From a virus: 64,000 nucleotides of DNA. A program made the translations under genes and the position numbers. Shown here piece by piece: positions 22,183 through 59,062 of this stretch. The notes under the pieces were generated by a model. That model was not told the DNA's origin. It did not search any database and worked only from the letters and a program-made list of their open reading frames with translations. The stretch lies in the IMG/VR virus record IMGVR_UViG_3300035034_001226, positions 22,721 through 86,720 of that record; one strand, written 5' to 3'. Within the stretch, counting starts at the first letter, position 1. Each line of letters begins with the position of its first letter.

Positions 22183-22818
22183 TTAGACATTAGACATACC
22201 ACCCATACCTGTTACATCATACCAATTTAATTTAATATAACTTACAACAAAATCGAGAACTTGTTGAGAATTATTATCGTCATATTTTTCAACCACAATA
22301 CCAGTATGCCTCGTTATATTTTTAAAATAATGCTTCATCAGATCACTACTAGCATTTACCATATGAAGTATTCTACTAGCATATACATTAAGTGTTGTTT
22401 CTGAAAGTTCTTCTTCAGAAAATCTTTTAAGTAATCTGTACATTTGGACTTTAGGATCAATATCAATATAAAAATTTGATATTTCATAATCATCAAGTTC
22501 AGGGGAGCAATTAATACTATTAACACCTTTAAGGTCTAAGATCACAACTGGAATTTTACCCAAATCCACAATTCTTTCGATTTCGTCTAAGGTGCAACCA
22601 TACCACGATTCATTAAATTCTGATTTCTCAAGCAATACTAGATTATCAAATTTACACTTAGATACAAAATAGTAATCAATGCCATGCATTTCACCTGTTC
22701 GTGTTTCACGAGTGGTGTTGGATATTACCTCTGCGAAGTTTCTAGTATCACATAACTCTTTAGTTAGGGTAGATTTACCACTACAAGTAGGTCCAGAAAT
22801 TGTTAATAATTTTTTCAT
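22183..22818 (-). CDS. gmk: Guanylate kinase-like protein
   Basis: SGPTCSGKST, TTRETRTGEMHGIDYYF, WYG. Confidence 0.85.
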   Translation of the reverse strand: MKKLLTISGPTCSGKSTLTKELCDTRNFAEVISNTTRETRTGEMHGIDYYFVSKCKFDNLVLLEKSEFNESWYGCTLDEIERIVDLGKIPVVILDLKGVNSINCSPELDDYEISNFYIDIDPKVQMYRLLKRFSEEELSETTLNVYASRILHMVNASSDLMKHYFKNITRHTGIVVEKYDDNNSQQVLDFVVSYIKLNWYDVTGMGGMSNV

Positions 22819-26385: not shown

Positions 26386-26485
26386 TATGTTTCCCTTATA
26401 TAGTTGGTGGGGTGAATGGTTCGAGCCATTATCTCCAGATGTTTTATCTGGCGTTTTTCCTTTAAACTATAACCCCATTGTTTCT

Positions 26486-29935: not shown

Positions 29936-30674
29936 CTTTATTTTTTAAATATTCTATTGTGCGTTCTAGATATTTAAATATTCTATTGTAGATTTTTTTA
30001 AAAGCCTTATTTTGCATTGCTTTAGATTCACCACCAAATACATCAATAAGATCATGATGTGATGCGGCCTGCATTATTGCTGAATTAATAGAATTACGAT
30101 CTATCTCTGTTCCACTCTTATAAAGTTTAATTAATTCACTTCTAGCCGTCAACATTGCTTCACTAGTCCTAGCATTAATCTCCGATGGATCACGATGATA
30201 TTCTGAATTATCCTCTCCAGTATCGACTGTATGACGGTTCATTTTAGTATTATCAAATGATTTACCCTTAGATAATGAATAATCCAATGCATGTCGCAAT
30301 TCGTGAACGATGGTTGAATGAATACTTTGAAATAGTCTCCTACCATATACAAGTGGGAATGTAAGAGTTATACTCTTATCTTCATAGTTATATTCACCAC
30401 CTCCAATATCATCAGAATCAGGATCAACATATATTGGAGTGGAATATATCTTAATCATACCTAAACGCCCATAAAGTGATCCAAGAACCTTAGAGTCAAC
30501 TATCTGACGTATTCTACCCACATATATTGGCTCATCATATAGGTTTTCACCCGCCTTAATTTCACGTACTACAGGCTTCATCTTAGTAAGTATTGTCTTA
30601 TTGATCTGAGTTGCTATTGCATCTAAACGGTTCTCTGCCTTAACATCCTCTGTTAAAATATCCTTGATTTTCAT
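29916..30674 (-). CDS. HExxH zinc metallopeptidase-like protein, probable internal head protein
   Basis: TIVHELRHALD...EINA; N-terminus MKIKDILTE; GATAAATA at 30681-30688. Confidence 0.65.
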   Translation of the reverse strand: MKIKDILTEDVKAENRLDAIATQINKTILTKMKPVVREIKAGENLYDEPIYVGRIRQIVDSKVLGSLYGRLGMIKIYSTPIYVDPDSDDIGGGEYNYEDKSITLTFPLVYGRRLFQSIHSTIVHELRHALDYSLSKGKSFDNTKMNRHTVDTGEDNSEYHRDPSEINARTSEAMLTARSELIKLYKSGTEIDRNSINSAIMQAASHHDLIDVFGGESKAMQNKAFKKIYNRIFKYLERTIEYLKNKGASDER

Positions 30675-36729: not shown

Positions 36730-37088
36730 GCATTAGAATATGAGTAATCGGTTAGGAACGTCTGGACATCTTTAAATCTTGCCGTTCCATTAAAGTGTTG
36801 GTATCACCTGTCTCGATAGGTCCAACGGCCAACGACACACCCGATTTCAAACATATTTTGGTGTATATGCTTCGCTCTGAACTCACCCACATATACTGCT
36901 CAAGCGTGTAATTTATCCTCAAGTCAGAGAGCGTCCGTCAGGATAATACACGCTGTGTAACGTTTCCAAAATCGATTTAGTTAGATATGTTACCCGAAGG
37001 TGGTTTAGGTCTTCGGTATGATATTTTGTGATGTTCAATTCACCTCGGTCTTACCCGTCCACATAAACCAATAACATATCTAACTAAT
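36730..37088 (-). ncRNA. Unknown ~350-nt structured RNA with its own promoter
   Basis: No ORF; 16-bp perfect inverted repeat 36977-36992/37072-37087; further long stems and loop-loop complementarity. Confidence 0.65.
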
Positions 37089-37883: not shown

Positions 37884-38657
37884 TCAATTCAATGACCTTA
37901 TTAATAATTTACATTCATGTAAACGTTTAAATTCCATTATACCTAATTCGTCAATCTTAGATTTTTTCCATATTTCATCCCGGTTCGGATGCTTTCGCCA
38001 AGTAGTGTGGGATATTTCAAATTCATTATCTGCATTCTGTGCAGACATCCACAGTTCACCAAATTTATCATCAACATATCCAGCATTACTAGTAATAATA
38101 CATTTTGCTCCTAGACACAACATTGGATTTATTGATTCCCAAAAATAACATGCTTGCTCTAACGATACATTTGAAAAATTATCAATATATAATAAATCTA
38201 ATGATAATCCTTTACATGAATGTGCACTTGCTTGGTTGGCATGTATAGATGAGCCATTATCAAATTTAATTTTAGTCTTATCATATGTTACTATATCTTG
38301 GCGGATAAAGTCTGGACATGATTCATGGGCTGTTCTTATAATATTTATGAAATCCCTAGCATGATCCCACTCACTACATGCAATTAATATTTTACTATTT
38401 GGTACGAACATAGCATACCACAACATGTACATTAGTGATACTGTGGTTTTCCCCATATCTTCACCCATCAAATTAATCGAATCTTTACAATCACGATAAA
38501 CATCTAACAAACAAAATTGGTGTTCATAAGGTATAAATTTAATTAAGCCTTTGTTTGGATGTTCTATGTATATAAACTCAGAAATAAAATATTCTGGACC
38601 ATATATCGGATCAGTGCATTGTGTTAATTGAACGTTTTCATTTTTAGTTAATATCAT
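37884..38657 (-). CDS. Second terminase ATPase-domain paralog, catalytically altered
   Basis: Colinear with residues ~20-265 of the gp17 at 485-2047; GEDMGKT, LLYIDNF, CIITSN. Confidence 0.8.
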   Translation of the reverse strand: MILTKNENVQLTQCTDPIYGPEYFISEFIYIEHPNKGLIKFIPYEHQFCLLDVYRDCKDSINLMGEDMGKTTVSLMYMLWYAMFVPNSKILIACSEWDHARDFINIIRTAHESCPDFIRQDIVTYDKTKIKFDNGSSIHANQASAHSCKGLSLDLLYIDNFSNVSLEQACYFWESINPMLCLGAKCIITSNAGYVDDKFGELWMSAQNADNEFEISHTTWRKHPNRDEIWKKSKIDELGIMEFKRLHECKLLIRSLN

Positions 38658-40439: not shown

Positions 40440-40871
40440 TTATATACCACTTCCTCTATTCATTATAATATAGTGGATAATATCACTCTGTATTGACATA
40501 AGTTTAGCTTTTTCAAGAAACAATCCTGTGATGTCAATTGATTTACCAAGGGCTTGGATGTCTGATGACTTTATAGATTCTCTAATTGTAGAAGCAATAT
40601 CACTAAAATCTAGAACATCAGCATTTAATTCACGAATATTATACTCAATACTATCAATTTCTTCAATATTATTGGATAACTCTGCTTCAAGTTCACTTAA
40701 TGTTAGGCTCCGATATCTTTCATTTTTTGCATTAACAATATCATCATATGCAGTCTTCCTACATTTACCCCAATTATCTTTATCCACATCTGTCATATTT
40801 TTATATGATGGTAATTCTGTCAATTCACTACCATGACACGCGGGACAGTTAACTCTTTCACAATTATACAT
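40440..40871 (-). CDS. Hypothetical protein
   Basis: 143 aa with CPAC. Confidence 0.6.
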   Translation of the reverse strand: MYNCERVNCPACHGSELTELPSYKNMTDVDKDNWGKCRKTAYDDIVNAKNERYRSLTLSELEAELSNNIEEIDSIEYNIRELNADVLDFSDIASTIRESIKSSDIQALGKSIDITGLFLEKAKLMSIQSDIIHYIIMNRGSGI

Positions 40872-40897
40872 ATTATTTCCATTATTTTAGTTAAATT

Positions 40898-41050
40898 TGG
40901 TAGTAATGGGATGCTTGCAACACACCGACCTCCACCTCGTGGTGACGCTCTCTTCAGTTTTCTGTTGCAGTTTCTCGCTATTCAGGGTCATGACTCCCCT
41001 ACTCACTTAGCTGCTCAATCCCCCTACAATTGCTTCTGATCTACATTACC
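40898..41050 (-). ncRNA. 153-nt tRNA-like RNA with expanded central domain
   Basis: GGTAATG/CATTACT acceptor plus ACCA, T8A9 and GATC/GATT D stem, T-like arm. Confidence 0.6.
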
Positions 41051-41068
41051 CCACGCCTGTGGCGTGGT

Positions 41069-41160
41069 TGGTGGTAGGTGTGGGATTCGAACCCACGAAC
41101 CGGCTTTCGCCGGTTAACTCCTTAGCAGGGAGCCGATTTCAGCCTCTCATCCAACCTACC
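41069..41160 (-). tRNA. tRNA-Ser (GCU)
   Basis: CTCC-CTGCTAA-GGAG, long variable arm. Confidence 0.9.
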
Positions 41161-41163
41161 ATA

Positions 41164-41514
41164 TTATATTCTTTCAATAAAAATTTCTTCTAAATGTCTA
41201 GATTCATCATTATTATACAAATCCGCAACCTCTTTACGTAAATGTATTCGTAATACTAAATCCTTTTTAGTTGCGGTTATACCATAGAATCCTTTACTGG
41301 TTTCATCTGGTCTTAAACGTCTACCCCTGACAAACTTAATCTTAACCGCACTATACTCTGGATACTGTTCAGCAATTAGTTTTGCTAATGATTCCGAGAA
41401 TGTAATACGATGTAAAGTGTTTGTTGTGGGGTTTATGATTGCCCATGCTGACTCACTAGCCTTACATGATTGGCAAAAACTTGGTGCTTGTTCTTCGTTC
41501 TAACTGTTGGTCAT
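41164..41514 (-). pseudogene. Hypothetical gene with TAG at codon 5
   Basis: AGGAG RBS, ATG ACC AAC AGT TAG, then 111 sense codons to TAA. Confidence 0.7.
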
Positions 41515-41939: not shown

Positions 41940-42790
41940 AATAAACGCTGAGATTATACGTTTTAGTAGTGACCTTTAATTCCCGTACCATATCCCTTGC
42001 GAGGATAGTTAAGAACTTATCCATATAAACGCTATTAAGCTGCCTATATATTCACTAATGCTGCCTTGTTAAAGTGTGGCGTTTCACTTGTCATAACATA
42101 CTACTCGTCCAGTCTTATTACGTCTGGTCACCCAGTTAAACTCCGCTAAAAGTCTACGTACTCTTTCTAAACAAATATCATCAGCTTGCGGCCTTTGACA
42201 CACTCCATTCCAAATGGTGGAGTATTAAGCATTTTTAGTATGCTACCGGAATGGTCTTTGCGTTTTAATCAATAGTAGGACTTGAACCTACATACGATTC
42301 CTTTTGAGGGAATTGCCTAATCCAATTTGGCTATATTGTAACCTACTAAGATGTGCCATTCCTGTCGCTACATATCTTGTTAGATACGTAATACAACACA
42401 CCTCCTATCTTTCGTCTTGCGAACTACTCGATATCCTTTCACGATTATGGCTCTTACACCAATATCGTTCAAAATGATAGCTGCCCTTTCCTGCGAAAGA
42501 TCGGACTAATCCATCTACACATTAGAATCCCACTATGGTTAGGTTGATTTGTTCAGCTTGGCTATCACACCAATTCATGTCTCGCGGAGCCGTCTGACAC
42601 TATCCTTTCGGACTAAAACCCTAACTTACAGTTTATCGCTGCCTTAACAACGCGGCTAACTTAGAACCGAAGTTCATATTGCCTATCCTGTGCTTGCATA
42701 TATAGACCCTTACGGGTGATGGCGTGTAGGACGCTCATCTTTTTAAGTGTTACCACTTATTGTCTTATTGAGGATATGCCCCCAAATTCT
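41940..42790 (-). ncRNA. Large ornate RNA, GOLLD-like, with embedded tRNA-like domain
   Basis: ~850 nt without ORF between tRNA genes; many GNRA/UUCG hairpins; promoter at 42835-42862. Confidence 0.65.
42267..42341 (-). tRNA. tRNA-like domain (CAA anticodon) inside the large RNA
   Basis: ATTCC-CTCAAAA-GGAAT arm, GTAGG-TTCAAGT-CCTAC; 5-bp acceptor, no CCA. Confidence 0.6.
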
Positions 42791-42977: not shown

Positions 42978-43047
42978 CCTATATTGCAAGATTCGAACTT
43001 GCGTCTGTGGGTTCGTCCACTGTTCTATCCACTGAACTATTTATAGG
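42978..43047 (-). pseudogene. tRNA-Arg(ACG)-like pseudo-tRNA with shortened anticodon loop
   Basis: D and T arms intact; GTGG-ACGAAC-CCAC; no CCA. Confidence 0.6.
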
Positions 43048-43049
43048 GT

Positions 43050-43184
43050 TGGGTATGGTCACTACTCCATAATCTTCCAGATGTTACTCCGGTGCTTTCT
43101 CAATCAATGTATTAGTGATATAACTATTTCGAAGTTCATTATACCACCTCAATCAATCTACATAGTGAATCTTTAAGCTACCTC
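43050..43184 (-). ncRNA. Unknown RNA motif, copy 1
   Basis: Three sequence blocks shared with 58891-59059. Confidence 0.6.
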
Positions 43185-43187
43185 AAA

Positions 43188-43463
43188 TTATTCTTTTAAT
43201 CTATTATTTAATCTATTATTTAATCTATCATTAAACCTCTGTAAATGTTCTGAAGTTAGTTCCATTTCTAAGGTTAATTGCTCTAATAATAAATTAGTTT
43301 TATGTAATAGATATTCTGTACTTTCTTTATCAAGATTAGGATTTTTTTCCATCTCATCCAATTCTTCAATTATTTCACTCTTACGAGTATTGCATTTTTC
43401 TATATTATGTTTGATAGTATCATAATATACTTCTTCTAAATTGTCAAATATTTCATGTTCCAT
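43188..43463 (-). CDS. Hypothetical coiled-coil protein
   Basis: 91 aa; 12-bp repeat x3 at C-terminus. Confidence 0.55.
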   Translation of the reverse strand: MEHEIFDNLEEVYYDTIKHNIEKCNTRKSEIIEELDEMEKNPNLDKESTEYLLHKTNLLLEQLTLEMELTSEHLQRFNDRLNNRLNNRLKE

Positions 43464-44443: not shown

Positions 44444-44647
44444 ATCATTTCCTTTCCTATTAAATTAGTACCGCCAGTGAGTCAGAAACCTAGAATTTCT
44501 CATGTAAGTAGGGAATCGAACCCTATCGAACCCTAAATGGCTGTGCAACCAGTACACCACATAACACTTTGTCACTCACTAGCTAGCAACTCATTACCTT
44601 AACCTGCCAAGGATACACCTCATGGACGTATGATGGGGTCGAACCAT

Positions 44648-44911
44648 CTAATGAGTCGATTCTTCAATGATATCTACCATTGTCATTAAACCGTGGGGAT
44701 TATTACCTGCCACTGTCCAAGTACCTTTGATATCATTTAAATTCACTCTACCTGATAACTCATATGTCTTTCCATCATCGTACACAACTTTCATTGTACA
44801 TTTATGGTTATCAATCAGTTTCAAATCTTCAATTTCTACTGATACTGCTTCAATTTCTTTTGTTGGCACTCTTCTCTTGAACCAACTTGTTTTCCTAATC
44901 TCTAATTTCAT
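44648..44911 (-). CDS. Hypothetical protein
   Basis: 87 aa. Confidence 0.55.
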   Translation of the reverse strand: MKLEIRKTSWFKRRVPTKEIEAVSVEIEDLKLIDNHKCTMKVVYDDGKTYELSGRVNLNDIKGTWTVAGNNPHGLMTMVDIIEESTH

Positions 44912-44961: not shown

Positions 44962-46227
44962 TTAATTACTCAATTCAATTAAATGTGAAATTGTGCACTG
45001 CTTACCATCATACACGATGTACTCATTATTACGTAGATCAGCACCACCTTCAGCAAACACACTATCATACCCCTCACGTTTCAAAACGCTCTTAGAGAGA
45101 GAATAACAGTCACGTGTGTGATGTTTAATACGCTTCCACTTACCAGTATGGACTTTAAATAATGCTAGGTATGCAGTATTGTCACTTCCACTCGCCCAAT
45201 ATGATCCACGTAGGGAAGTATATCCAATAGACTTCTGTGCCTTATCAGCAAAGTAGATACCATCACCAAACATAGAGCCAGTATATAAAGCACCCGCTGG
45301 ACGAATCATCAAACCAGTAGAAATAATATTCAACCAGTTTTGATTTCTTGAACCGTGAAAGAAATGTCTTACATGCTTATCATCAACCGATTTCAAATGG
45401 TTATCGAACTTCTTCTCAGTTGCCAAATGCTTTACAGTGAAAACTCTTTTGACTTGACCCTTGTTGCTACCCATCTTACTCACTGCAAAGTCATATTCTT
45501 CAGTTGATGCTGCTTCTATTTCTACACCCAACATTGTTAGAATGTCTTTATGATCAGATTTCACAGTATCATCGGTTTCATCATTAATCAAAACCTGTCC
45601 AGCCATTACATCTAATGTAGCCTGCTCTTCTGCAATTTGACTTTTAATATCATCTAATAATGCCTTATTAATTTTAGCATCCTTTTCAAATATATGATCC
45701 CTAACATCTTTCATTCGGCGTGGAATGATATGATATAGTTCAATCAATTGCTTATTAATATCATCAGTTTTCCTTCTAAGTTTTGCGGCATCTAAGATAC
45801 TATTAACCTTATCTTGGGCCTCATCAATCTGTGCTTGTGTAACTGATTTAGAACTTACTGAATAATTTTCCTGAATAGAGTTATTAGCAAAACGTTGTAA
45901 TATATCCATCAAGGATTTAACTTTACTGTCTTTAATATCTACAATGTTTGATGGTGTACTACTATCAGACTCTGCAAATAAATGGGTAACTTCAGTGTAA
46001 ATACTACCACTTTTACTCTTCTTAGACTTTATAACGGAATCCCATTTTGACATCGGATATTCTTTAATCTGTGGGGCACAATCTACTCTACCATATTCTG
46101 CAATGAATGTTGAATCATCCTGCTCATACATATTGTAGTATTTGTTGCTCTGTGCAGTTTTACCATCATCAATGGAAACACAAATTAACTTACATACTTT
46201 TTTGCCTTCTACTAATAACTCACTCAT
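44962..46227 (-). CDS. PARP-like ADP-ribosyltransferase: WGR, regulatory and catalytic domains
   Basis: NKYY...EYGRV (WGR); LYHIIPR (regulatory); FHGS, GSMFGDGIYFA, KSIGY, NNEYIVY (H-Y-E triad). Confidence 0.9.
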   Translation of the reverse strand: MSELLVEGKKVCKLICVSIDDGKTAQSNKYYNMYEQDDSTFIAEYGRVDCAPQIKEYPMSKWDSVIKSKKSKSGSIYTEVTHLFAESDSSTPSNIVDIKDSKVKSLMDILQRFANNSIQENYSVSSKSVTQAQIDEAQDKVNSILDAAKLRRKTDDINKQLIELYHIIPRRMKDVRDHIFEKDAKINKALLDDIKSQIAEEQATLDVMAGQVLINDETDDTVKSDHKDILTMLGVEIEAASTEEYDFAVSKMGSNKGQVKRVFTVKHLATEKKFDNHLKSVDDKHVRHFFHGSRNQNWLNIISTGLMIRPAGALYTGSMFGDGIYFADKAQKSIGYTSLRGSYWASGSDNTAYLALFKVHTGKWKRIKHHTRDCYSLSKSVLKREGYDSVFAEGGADLRNNEYIVYDGKQCTISHLIELSN

Positions 46228-56083: not shown

Positions 56084-56160
56084 TGGCGCGAGTAGATACC
56101 TAGCAGTACCATTTCTCCCAGTTCATTGGGAGCGTCCTTACCTATTTAGACTATACTCAC
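56084..56160 (-). tRNA. Non-canonical tRNA-like gene B (variant T loop, 8-nt anticodon loop)
   Basis: Identical T arm to gene A; CTCCC-AATGAACT-GGGAG; GCCA. Confidence 0.65.
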
Positions 56161-56182
56161 TTATTATTCACTTATTATTCAT

Positions 56183-58878: not shown

Positions 58879-58890
58879 TCATTGTGTAAT

Positions 58891-59059
58891 TGGTGGGTGT
58901 CTGAATTTGGCATGGTTGCTACTCCATGATCTTGCCACATAGTGCGACATGTTTTCTCAGTAAGGGTTTAGTTGTTACACAGTGTGAGGTGATCAGCCAA
59001 TTTGCATAACATACCTTACCTACTTAGCAATCTTTAAACTACTCTATTCAGACTTACCC
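58891..59059 (-). ncRNA. Unknown RNA motif, copy 2, CCA-terminated
   Basis: GGGT-AA-GTCTGAAT / ATTCAGAC-ACCC-ACCA terminal stem; blocks shared with 43050-43184. Confidence 0.7.
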
Positions 59060-59062
59060 GTT

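Follow-up and report, generated by a model that had tools for sequence, protein, structure and literature searches.

Locus and genomic setting

The DNA analysed here is a 64,000-nt stretch (the window) of the IMG/VR virus record IMGVR_UViG_3300035034_001226 (positions 22,721 to 86,720), and its minus strand bears at 40898-41050 a 153-nt element which, as judged from its sequence, is a real, tRNA-derived, non-decoding RNA gene with its origin in a class-I transfer RNA (tRNA), its D loop holding an 84-nt insertion. An earlier reading of the letters (the original prediction) had described the same element as a tRNA mimic in which a branched domain replaces the anticodon arm; the tRNA shape, the CCA end, the non-tRNA character and the position in a tRNA cluster are all borne out, whereas the proposed anatomy finds no support. 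The window belongs to a 105-kb viral contig of a lake jumbo phage, which by estimate represents about 30% of the genome and encodes a T4-type Gp23 capsid protein whose nearest relatives among cultured phages are those of the Xanthomonas jumbo phages XacN1 (70% identity) and Xoo-sp13 and of the Stenotrophomonas phages CM1 and RAS14. XacN1 has 56 tRNA genes (PMC5852040). In the window, ARAGORN finds 38 tRNA genes, every one on the minus strand, and Rfam a GOLLD RNA at 41945-42404. Positions within the element are counted from its 5' end, position 1 being window position 41050, and the immediate surroundings are as follows.

41069-41160, minus strand: tRNA-Ser(GCU), a class II tRNA of canonical form which encodes its CCA and directly precedes the element (ARAGORN; Rfam tRNA 54.7 bits)
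41051-41067, minus strand: spacer, an A and then a 7-bp hairpin CCACGCC-ACA-GGCGUGG which abuts element position 1 as 5' leader (read from the sequence)
40898-41050, minus strand: the 153-nt element, sitting in the tRNA/GOLLD island
40440-40871, minus strand: next gene, encoding an orphan protein of 143 aa, with its start codon 26 nt past the CCA of the element

The genes around the element all lie on the minus strand, and the distance of 18 nt to tRNA-Ser(GCU), which ends at 41069, is as originally reported. Because the 26-nt interval leaves no room for a promoter, the 143-aa gene is probably co-transcribed with the element. Upstream of GOLLD, at 42862-42835 on the minus strand, lies a consensus promoter (perfect TTGACA-16-TATAAT with a TG extension), and no terminator-like sites were found between it and the element or the 143-aa gene; co-transcription of the element from this island promoter is likely, going by these signals. 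The 197-nt gap which holds the element is the G+C-richest gap of the window free of open reading frames (ORFs), at 46% versus a background of about 34%. Within it, the G+C content is 49% for the whole element and 46% for the insertion, compared to 34% for the genome.

A tRNA frame interrupted within the D loop

A covariance model built from the element alone (R1) was run over 400 kb of the phage and its relatives. Its non-self matches are tRNAs or tRNA-like genes in 12 of 14 cases, each covering the model end to end, and in the 385 kb of XacN1 all four matches are tRNAs. Where these alignments were printed, the 5' 18 nt (1-18) and the 3' 57 nt (97-153) of the element line up with tRNA. As the 5' part of a tRNA thus matches 1-18 and the remainder 97-153, the branched domain is to be placed inside the D loop.

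For avoiding circularity, a split-tRNA scanner was written which employs column profiles of 29 real tRNAs together with generic pair scores and tolerates D-loop insertions of 0-150 nt, 3-9 nt in the anticodon loop and up to one additional nt before the acceptor 3' strand. Applied to both strands of the whole contig, it recovers the real tRNAs and, just beneath them, exactly 40898-41050 with 27.7 bits, in a solution where the insertion measures 84 nt, the anticodon loop 4 nt and the variable loop 5 nt, with one additional nt. By comparison, 1500 dinucleotide shuffles of the 197-nt gap reach 9.1 bits at most, and in the control sequences (about 650 kb in total) the maxima are 13.5 bits on the tRNA-free plus strand, 16.9 bits on a related contig without tRNAs and 21.2 bits in four block-shuffled genomes. 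Moreover, the middle block (A21, closure of the D stem, G26, the following stem and AGGUC abutting the T stem) scores 14.8 bits alone, a value not reached in any of 5000 interior shuffles (maximum 11.4 bits). From these data, the element is divided into the following parts.

41044-41050, minus strand: acceptor 5' strand GGUAAUG (1-7), pairing with 143-149; 7.4 bits in the split-tRNA scan
41036-41043, minus strand: U8, A9, D-stem 5' strand GAUC (10-13), A14 and G15, matched with the tRNA consensus UAGCUCAG in the R1 alignments and the scan
40952-41035, minus strand: 84-nt D-loop insertion (16-99), between G15 and A21; boundaries from the split-tRNA scan
40946-40951, minus strand: A21, D-stem 3' strand GAGC (101-104) and G26 (105); R1 alignments and scan
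40932-40945, minus strand: anticodon-arm remnant UCACC/GGUGG (106-110/115-119) with a 4-nt loop ACGA; folding, R1 and scan
40927-40931, minus strand: variable loop AGGUC (tRNA positions 44-48), 6.0 bits against the tRNA consensus; R1 aligns it with AGGUU/GGGUC of real tRNAs
40909-40926, minus strand: T-like arm GGUGU-GUUGCAA-GCAUC (125-141), with two G.U pairs and a non-canonical loop, plus an extra C142
40898-40908, minus strand: acceptor 3' strand CAUUACU (143-149), discriminator A and encoded CCA (ACCA, 150-153); sequence, folding and scan

The acceptor stem GGUAAUG/CAUUACU consists of a G.U pair (G1.U72) and six Watson-Crick pairs; its 7 bp, the ACCA end, U8 and A9 had all been recognized correctly and are found on the minus strand. 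In the D stem GAUC/GAGC (10-13/101-104), G10-C25, U12-A23 and C13-G22 pair, while A11.G24 is mismatched. The canonical set of the D arm and core (U8, A14, R15, A21, G26, Y48 and the D stem) is present, though divided by the insertion of 84 nt. When textbook tRNA structure is applied to the sequence, the nucleotides for the core triples and the Levitt pair are in place as well (U8-A14, A9/U12-A23, G45/G10-C25, G46/C13-G22, G15-C48 and G26-A44).

For the insertion itself, three structures are predicted by constrained folding only: a first hairpin CAAUU-GUAGGGG-GAUUG (19-35), a long and irregular second arm (37-84) with the tip UAGGG-GAGUCAUGA-CCCUG and a third hairpin CAG-AAAA-CUG (87-96). No covariation stands behind these hairpins, and the folding energy of the insertion is ordinary (z = -0.26 versus shuffles). 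The CAG-AAAA-CUG and CCAC-GAG-GUGG hairpins of the original prediction both exist in the sequence. The GCAG/CUGC (37-40/81-84) and CUA/UAG (41-43/71-73) pairings are likewise present, but the two proposed 4-bp stems share G40, so at least one must be shorter than 4 bp. The T-like arm was also described correctly, except that the unpaired C142 before the acceptor 3' strand went unmentioned.

The main disagreement concerns the centre of the molecule. According to the original prediction, a D arm GAUC/GAUU is followed by the branched domain in place of the anticodon arm, by CCAC-GAG-GUGG as a variable-arm-like hairpin and then by the T arm. GAUC (10-13) can indeed pair with GAUU (31-34), albeit enclosing a loop of 17 nt and not 16, and in this strain the pairing scores slightly above GAUC/GAGC (3.8 versus 1.7). 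Besides, tRNA-like genes with an expanded anticodon arm do exist in relatives, for example at 30282-30390 in XacN1 and at 77711-77805 in the related lake phage contig IMGVR_UViG_3300039191_000223 (G001; capsid identity 84%), and the tip UCAUGA of the long arm recalls a CAU anticodon loop, but it lies within a 9-nt loop. This arrangement leaves unexplained the run A-GAGC-G-stem-AGGUC, which stands in tRNA frame next to the T stem and does not arise in the 5000 shuffles. In addition, folding with the acceptor and T arms fixed favours CAAUU/GAUUG (19-23/31-35) with a probability of 0.7, which competes with GAUC/GAUU. Together with the R1 alignments, the scan and the shuffles, this points to an anticodon arm that is truncated rather than replaced, with the branched domain housed in the D loop, and the anatomy originally proposed is accordingly improbable.

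Strain variation

Variation was surveyed in DNA contigs of four runs, comparing about 385 nt. Contigs from three salt-lake runs contain a close variant of the element, with only two differences seen, both inside the element. One is the substitution of A11 by C (T>G at 41040 on the plus strand), which turns the A11.G24 mismatch into a C-G pair, so that the D stem becomes GCUC/GAGC, equal to the consensus, with four of four pairs versus three of four in this strain. In element numbering, the same change destroys A11-U33 of the originally proposed stem and creates C11-G103; GAUC/GAUU is thus probably not the native D stem. The other difference is a 1-nt deletion in the G run 27-31, which forms the loop of the predicted hairpin 19-23/31-35. 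Support from the variant for the D stem 10-13/101-104 is modest, as it comes from one substitution in sequence data and the runs may share one campaign. Two further assemblies of this phage show no difference within the element.

Absence of canonical tRNA features

ARAGORN calls neither a tRNA nor a transfer-messenger RNA (tmRNA) at the element, and the Rfam comparison proposed as a check with the original prediction was run and yields no family, neither at gathering scores nor at E <= 10. With filters off, the element scores no more than 3.4 bits under a covariance model from the window's own 29 class-I tRNAs (R2), compared to 38-84 bits for real tRNAs. In these 29 tRNAs, U33 in a 7-nt loop as well as T54, T55, C56 and A58 are all invariant. 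The anticodon-type loop of the element, in contrast, has 4 nt, or, with the inner C-G pair open, no more than 6 nt, without U33 and without a 7-nt loop. Its T loop, reading GUUGCAA versus UUCRANN and closed by U.G at 53-61, carries G54, U56 and C58 and hence deviates at three of the phage's four invariant T-loop positions, resulting in -10.5 bits against the phage's own T loops. With the 4-nt ACGA loop and the GUUGCAA T loop, the element cannot decode; as far as the sequence tells, it is not a decoding tRNA.

Searches for homologues and analogues in relatives

Among 50,697 phage records, blastn in distant mode matched only the tRNA-Ser part of the query, and the element alone gave nothing. With nhmmer, it matched only itself in the whole contig and four related contigs, and R1 found no match in RAS14, RsoM2USA and 20 capsid relatives from IMG/VR. 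A pattern of the 3' half occurs only in the G001 lineage among viral contigs and metagenomes and in no bacterial genomes, whereas a match of the split pattern proved to be two adjacent ordinary tRNAs (Asp and Gly) and is dismissed as a false positive. Likewise, a pattern scan for the T arm of paralogues gave no match, and a 138-nt R1 match in Xoo-sp13 is a normal tRNA-Met whose first bases recur upstream by chance and so lengthen the match. Searching via the neighbourhood was not successful either: for the 143-aa protein downstream, IMG/VR yielded no relative and a set of 5.8 billion proteins only the protein itself, the YqeY neighbour has no close relative, and in G001 and G002 a GroES-like gene, not the element, follows tRNA-Ser(GCU). 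A GOLLD match is absent from G001.

G001 does possess two genes of comparable design. The first is a 102-nt tRNA-like gene (68842-68943) with a hairpin-bearing D-loop insertion of 31 nt, a CCACC/GGUGG stem, the T loop CUCGCAA, an ACCA end and a 7-nt anticodon loop GAUCGAA with A33. The second is a 124-nt Gln-like (CUG) gene (about 68974-69064) with a 25-nt D-loop insertion, the anticodon loop CUCUGAA and the T loop UUUCGCAC. Both share with the element the tRNA frame, a hairpin-bearing D-loop insertion and an off-consensus T loop containing GCA, but they keep 7-nt anticodon loops, have much shorter insertions and lie in another gene neighbourhood. A D-loop insertion together with a T loop of the type ..GCA.. 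is found in all three D-loop-inserted genes (the element and the two of G001), compared to none of the 29 canonical window tRNAs and not in the canonical tRNA-Arg of G001. This co-occurrence hints, at the level of sequence, at a jointly remodelled elbow.

In the same part of G001 (68560-69160, minus strand), aberrant tRNA-like genes stand behind tRNA-Arg(UCG), including an element of about 150 nt with two canonical T arms in one closing stem. A further 154-nt element (67772-67925, minus strand) directly follows the stop codon of an ORF and has a canonical T arm, a CGCUG/CAGCG closing stem, an ACCA end and 34.8 bits in the scan.

Long CCA-ending tRNA-like genes of 109-150 nt are detected by the split-tRNA scan in XacN1 (AP018399) at 30282-30390, 36856-36980 and 45296-45445, the former two being without annotation in the XacN1 record. 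The 125-nt gene at 36856-36980 is shared with Xoo-sp13 (MN047793, about 38349-38472) at 71% identity, its T stem being preserved via changes in both strands. Kinship between these genes and the insertion of the element was considered and rejected, similarity being at chance level. A 5' 16-mer common to the element and XacN1 30282-30390 is accounted for by an acceptor and D arm of the tRNA-Phe type. Descent from tRNA-Arg(UCG) or tRNA-Gly(GCC) was also discarded, since besides some suggestive stem likenesses the identity is no higher than to other tRNAs.

Comparison with known RNA systems

With the canonical class-I tRNA (RF00005), the element has in common the 7-bp acceptor stem, discriminator and CCA, the nucleotides U8, A9, A14, R15, A21 and G26, a D stem of four positions, a 5-bp stem of anticodon type, the 5-nt variable loop AGGUC and a 5-bp T stem. 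It differs by its D-loop insertion of 84 nt, the 4-nt anticodon loop, the GUUGCAA T loop and the extra nucleotide between T and acceptor stems. An intron spliced from the D loop does not account for this structure, as the boundaries show no bulge-helix-bulge pairing, group I introns are longer than 84 nt and splicing would not mend the anticodon loop.

The closest known RNAs by function are RNAC and RNAD of phage T4 (species 1 and 2; NC_000866, 70908-71171), which are transcribed from the tRNA region and whose roles are unknown (PMC3014915; see also PMC12685909). Like the element, these RNAs of 119-139 nt are noncoding and directly follow a tRNA gene within a tRNA cluster. RNAC combines a T arm of tRNA type, whose loop is the canonical UUCGAAU, with an enlarged 5' domain, and its gene does not encode CCA. 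At the T4 locus R1 gives no match, the folds of the element and the T4 RNAs differ, and the split-tRNA scan fits only part of RNAC, with 20 bits and other ends. The likeness to stable RNAs of T4 and T5 noted in the original prediction is thus an analogy, with no homology detected at the T4 locus.

Within the window, tRNA-like RNAs of about 140-170 nt at 58879-59062 and 43047-43190 share island and strand with the element, and the 58879 copy also stands directly behind a tRNA gene and has a closing stem and an ACCA end. Both copies show a hairpin (7 bp with a 3-nt loop in the 58879 copy) followed by a 5-bp arm whose loop, AGUAGCAA or AGUAGUGA, resembles the GUUGCAA of the element. Assigning the element to this family is nevertheless rejected: nhmmer joins the two copies with each other and not with the element, local alignment with them scores at the shuffle mean, R1 with filters off gives 5.5 bits in an unrelated sub-part, and the copies are not among the listed matches of the split-tRNA scan. 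About 5 nt upstream of the 43047-43190 stretch, a 12-nt indel (43195-43206) sets the contig apart from two further assemblies of this phage.

The tRNA-like domain of tmRNA and the bacterial Y-RNA-like (YrlA) tRNA mimics resemble the element in being non-decoding mimics of acceptor and T arm in which another part of the tRNA is replaced by a large functional domain. The element differs from tmRNA in the lack of an ARAGORN tmRNA call and of G3.U70, its pair 3-70 being U-A, and from Y RNAs in that its ends lie in the acceptor stem and its expansion in the D loop.

Other tRNA-like sequences and features of the contig

Several further sequences of the window, all on the minus strand, depart from the canonical tRNA form. 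In the gene at 52917-53034 (Rfam 34 bits), the anticodon loop is enlarged by 50 nt of inserted sequence and CCA is not encoded, and at 55999-56074 and 56090-56165 lies a tandem tRNA-like pair with an odd T loop UGCUAG(G), the first gene being Pro-like (UGG) with 39 bits in R2; all three are missed by ARAGORN. A CCA-ending tRNA-like gene at 26405-26476 reaches 33.8 bits with R2, has the T loop CUCGAAC and an unusual anticodon loop, and is called neither by ARAGORN nor by Rfam at gathering score. The G+C-rich and ORF-poor stretch 44444-44720 contains several T-arm-like motifs (GGUUCGACCCC; GGGUUCGAUAGGGUUCGAUUCCC), and no tool calls a tRNA there.

Between tRNA-Ser(GCU) and the upstream gene, a 111-codon open frame (41164-41499, minus strand) with a weak PHROG match (phrog_29342) has its first ATG, GTG or TTG only within the final 19 codons; its start codon may be an unusual one, or the gene may be broken. 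On the 105-kb contig as a whole, 19 amino acids are served by a tRNA, and an amber-suppressor tRNA(CUA) is present at 65227-65300 in window numbering, i.e., beyond the window end, but there is no tRNA-Gly. The related contig G001 is without Gly and Tyr tRNAs.

Interpretation

For the element as a whole, we give about an even chance to a functional tRNA-derived mimic RNA. A long transcript of the tRNA/GOLLD island would carry it along with tRNA-Ser. We infer, rather than observe, processing of the tRNA type, in which RNase P would free the element at G1 and 3' trimming would halt at the encoded CCA. The product would be a stable RNA of about 153 nt with the remodelled elbow, i.e., the D-loop domain and the altered T loop, as its working part, and such a tRNA mimic might occupy or recruit a tRNA-binding factor. 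The likeliest arena would be the conflict over tRNA between the phage and tRNA-cutting defences of the host. A specific role as decoy is pure inference and deserves far less credence than a functional mimic as such.

Several observations weigh against this reading. In this strain, the D stem contains the A.G mismatch, and the altered T loop and elbow may hamper recognition by RNase P and the CCA enzyme. Folding energy of the whole element is ordinary (z = -0.42 versus shuffles), and the island holds several other degenerate tRNA-like sequences, fitting birth and decay of tRNA genes. Beyond near-identical strains, homologues were not found in GenBank phages, IMG/VR relatives or the pattern scans of metagenomes and genomes, and these searches therefore give no sign of selection on the insertion or the altered loops. 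The spliced core is 72% identical to the 102-nt gene of G001 and 70-75% to ordinary tRNAs of the phage group; an identity no higher than to tRNAs gives no indication of orthology to the G001 gene.

A close rival to the functional mimic, less probable in our view yet a serious contender, is a decaying class-I tRNA pseudogene which has acquired the 84-nt D-loop insertion, lost nucleotides of its anticodon loop, undergone T-loop drift and is transcribed only via the operon, without function. In line with this, the parts needed for decoding are all damaged (anticodon loop, T loop and a D loop with G18/G19 in the usual place), the stems show the A.G opposition, G.U in four of 21 pairs and the extra C before the acceptor 3' strand, both strain differences in about 385 nt fall within the element, and the searches gave no homologue. 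The further degenerate tRNA-like sequences of the island fit as well, and a tRNA pseudogene has been reported in XacN1 (PMC5852040). Decay, however, does not readily account for a G+C content of 46-49% in both core and insertion versus 34% in the genome, nor for all four stems and the encoded CCA being intact despite three separate lesions. Moreover, phage genomes are compact and the window has no second G+C-rich gap of 190 nt like this one, the combination of D-loop insertion and ..GCA.. T loop recurs in three of three such genes, and of the two strain differences one brings back a base pair.

Slightly less probable still than the anatomy originally proposed is a cis-acting processing or leader element, i.e., a tRNA-shaped punctuation guiding RNase P or 3' processing for the downstream orphan mRNA and having no role in trans. 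The next ORF starts 26 nt past the CCA without promoter room and without an upstream terminator, and co-transcripts of tRNA and mRNA are usual in T4-type phages. Such a processing site, however, is already offered by tRNA-Ser 18 nt upstream, punctuation needs no insertion of 84 nt, and the downstream gene is an orphan. Chance pairing in a spacer or in a coding region of the opposite strand is barely credible, for although shuffles fold with comparable energy and a 68-codon plus-strand ORF exists at 40833-41039, the tRNA-frame score is unapproached in 1500 shuffles of the locus, that ORF has no Pfam or PHROG match and the neighbouring genes are all on the minus strand.

Extending the functional mimic to a group of phages is more speculative, and we consider it rather unlikely: lake jumbo phages of the XacN1 lineage could possess an undescribed class of elbow-remodelled tRNA mimics, in which body, acceptor and CCA are kept for maturation and perhaps charging, a D-loop domain has co-evolved with an N-U-Y-G-C-A T loop and the anticodon is dispensable, the elbow serving as handle for a partner and the RNA as decoy or adaptor in conflicts over tRNA. 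What sets the element apart among tRNA-derived, non-decoding RNA genes of phage clusters is its D-loop insertion; this anatomy is unusual and well supported by the sequence comparisons, and in the sequences searched the element is so far a singleton.

Since T4, phage tRNA clusters have been known to contain stable non-tRNA RNAs, whose function has been obscure for fifty years. The element presents a checkable route from a tRNA to such a non-tRNA RNA, with frame and CCA kept, the elbow rebuilt and the anticodon lost. If it is a pseudogene, it would illustrate how genes arise and disappear in viral tRNA arrays, and caution against counting such loci as tRNAs. With their long CCA-ending tRNA-like genes, the cultured phages XacN1 and Xoo-sp13 would provide a tractable system for studying the role of RNAs of this kind, and should these be decoys against tRNA-directed defences, phage counter-defence would gain a layer made of RNA.

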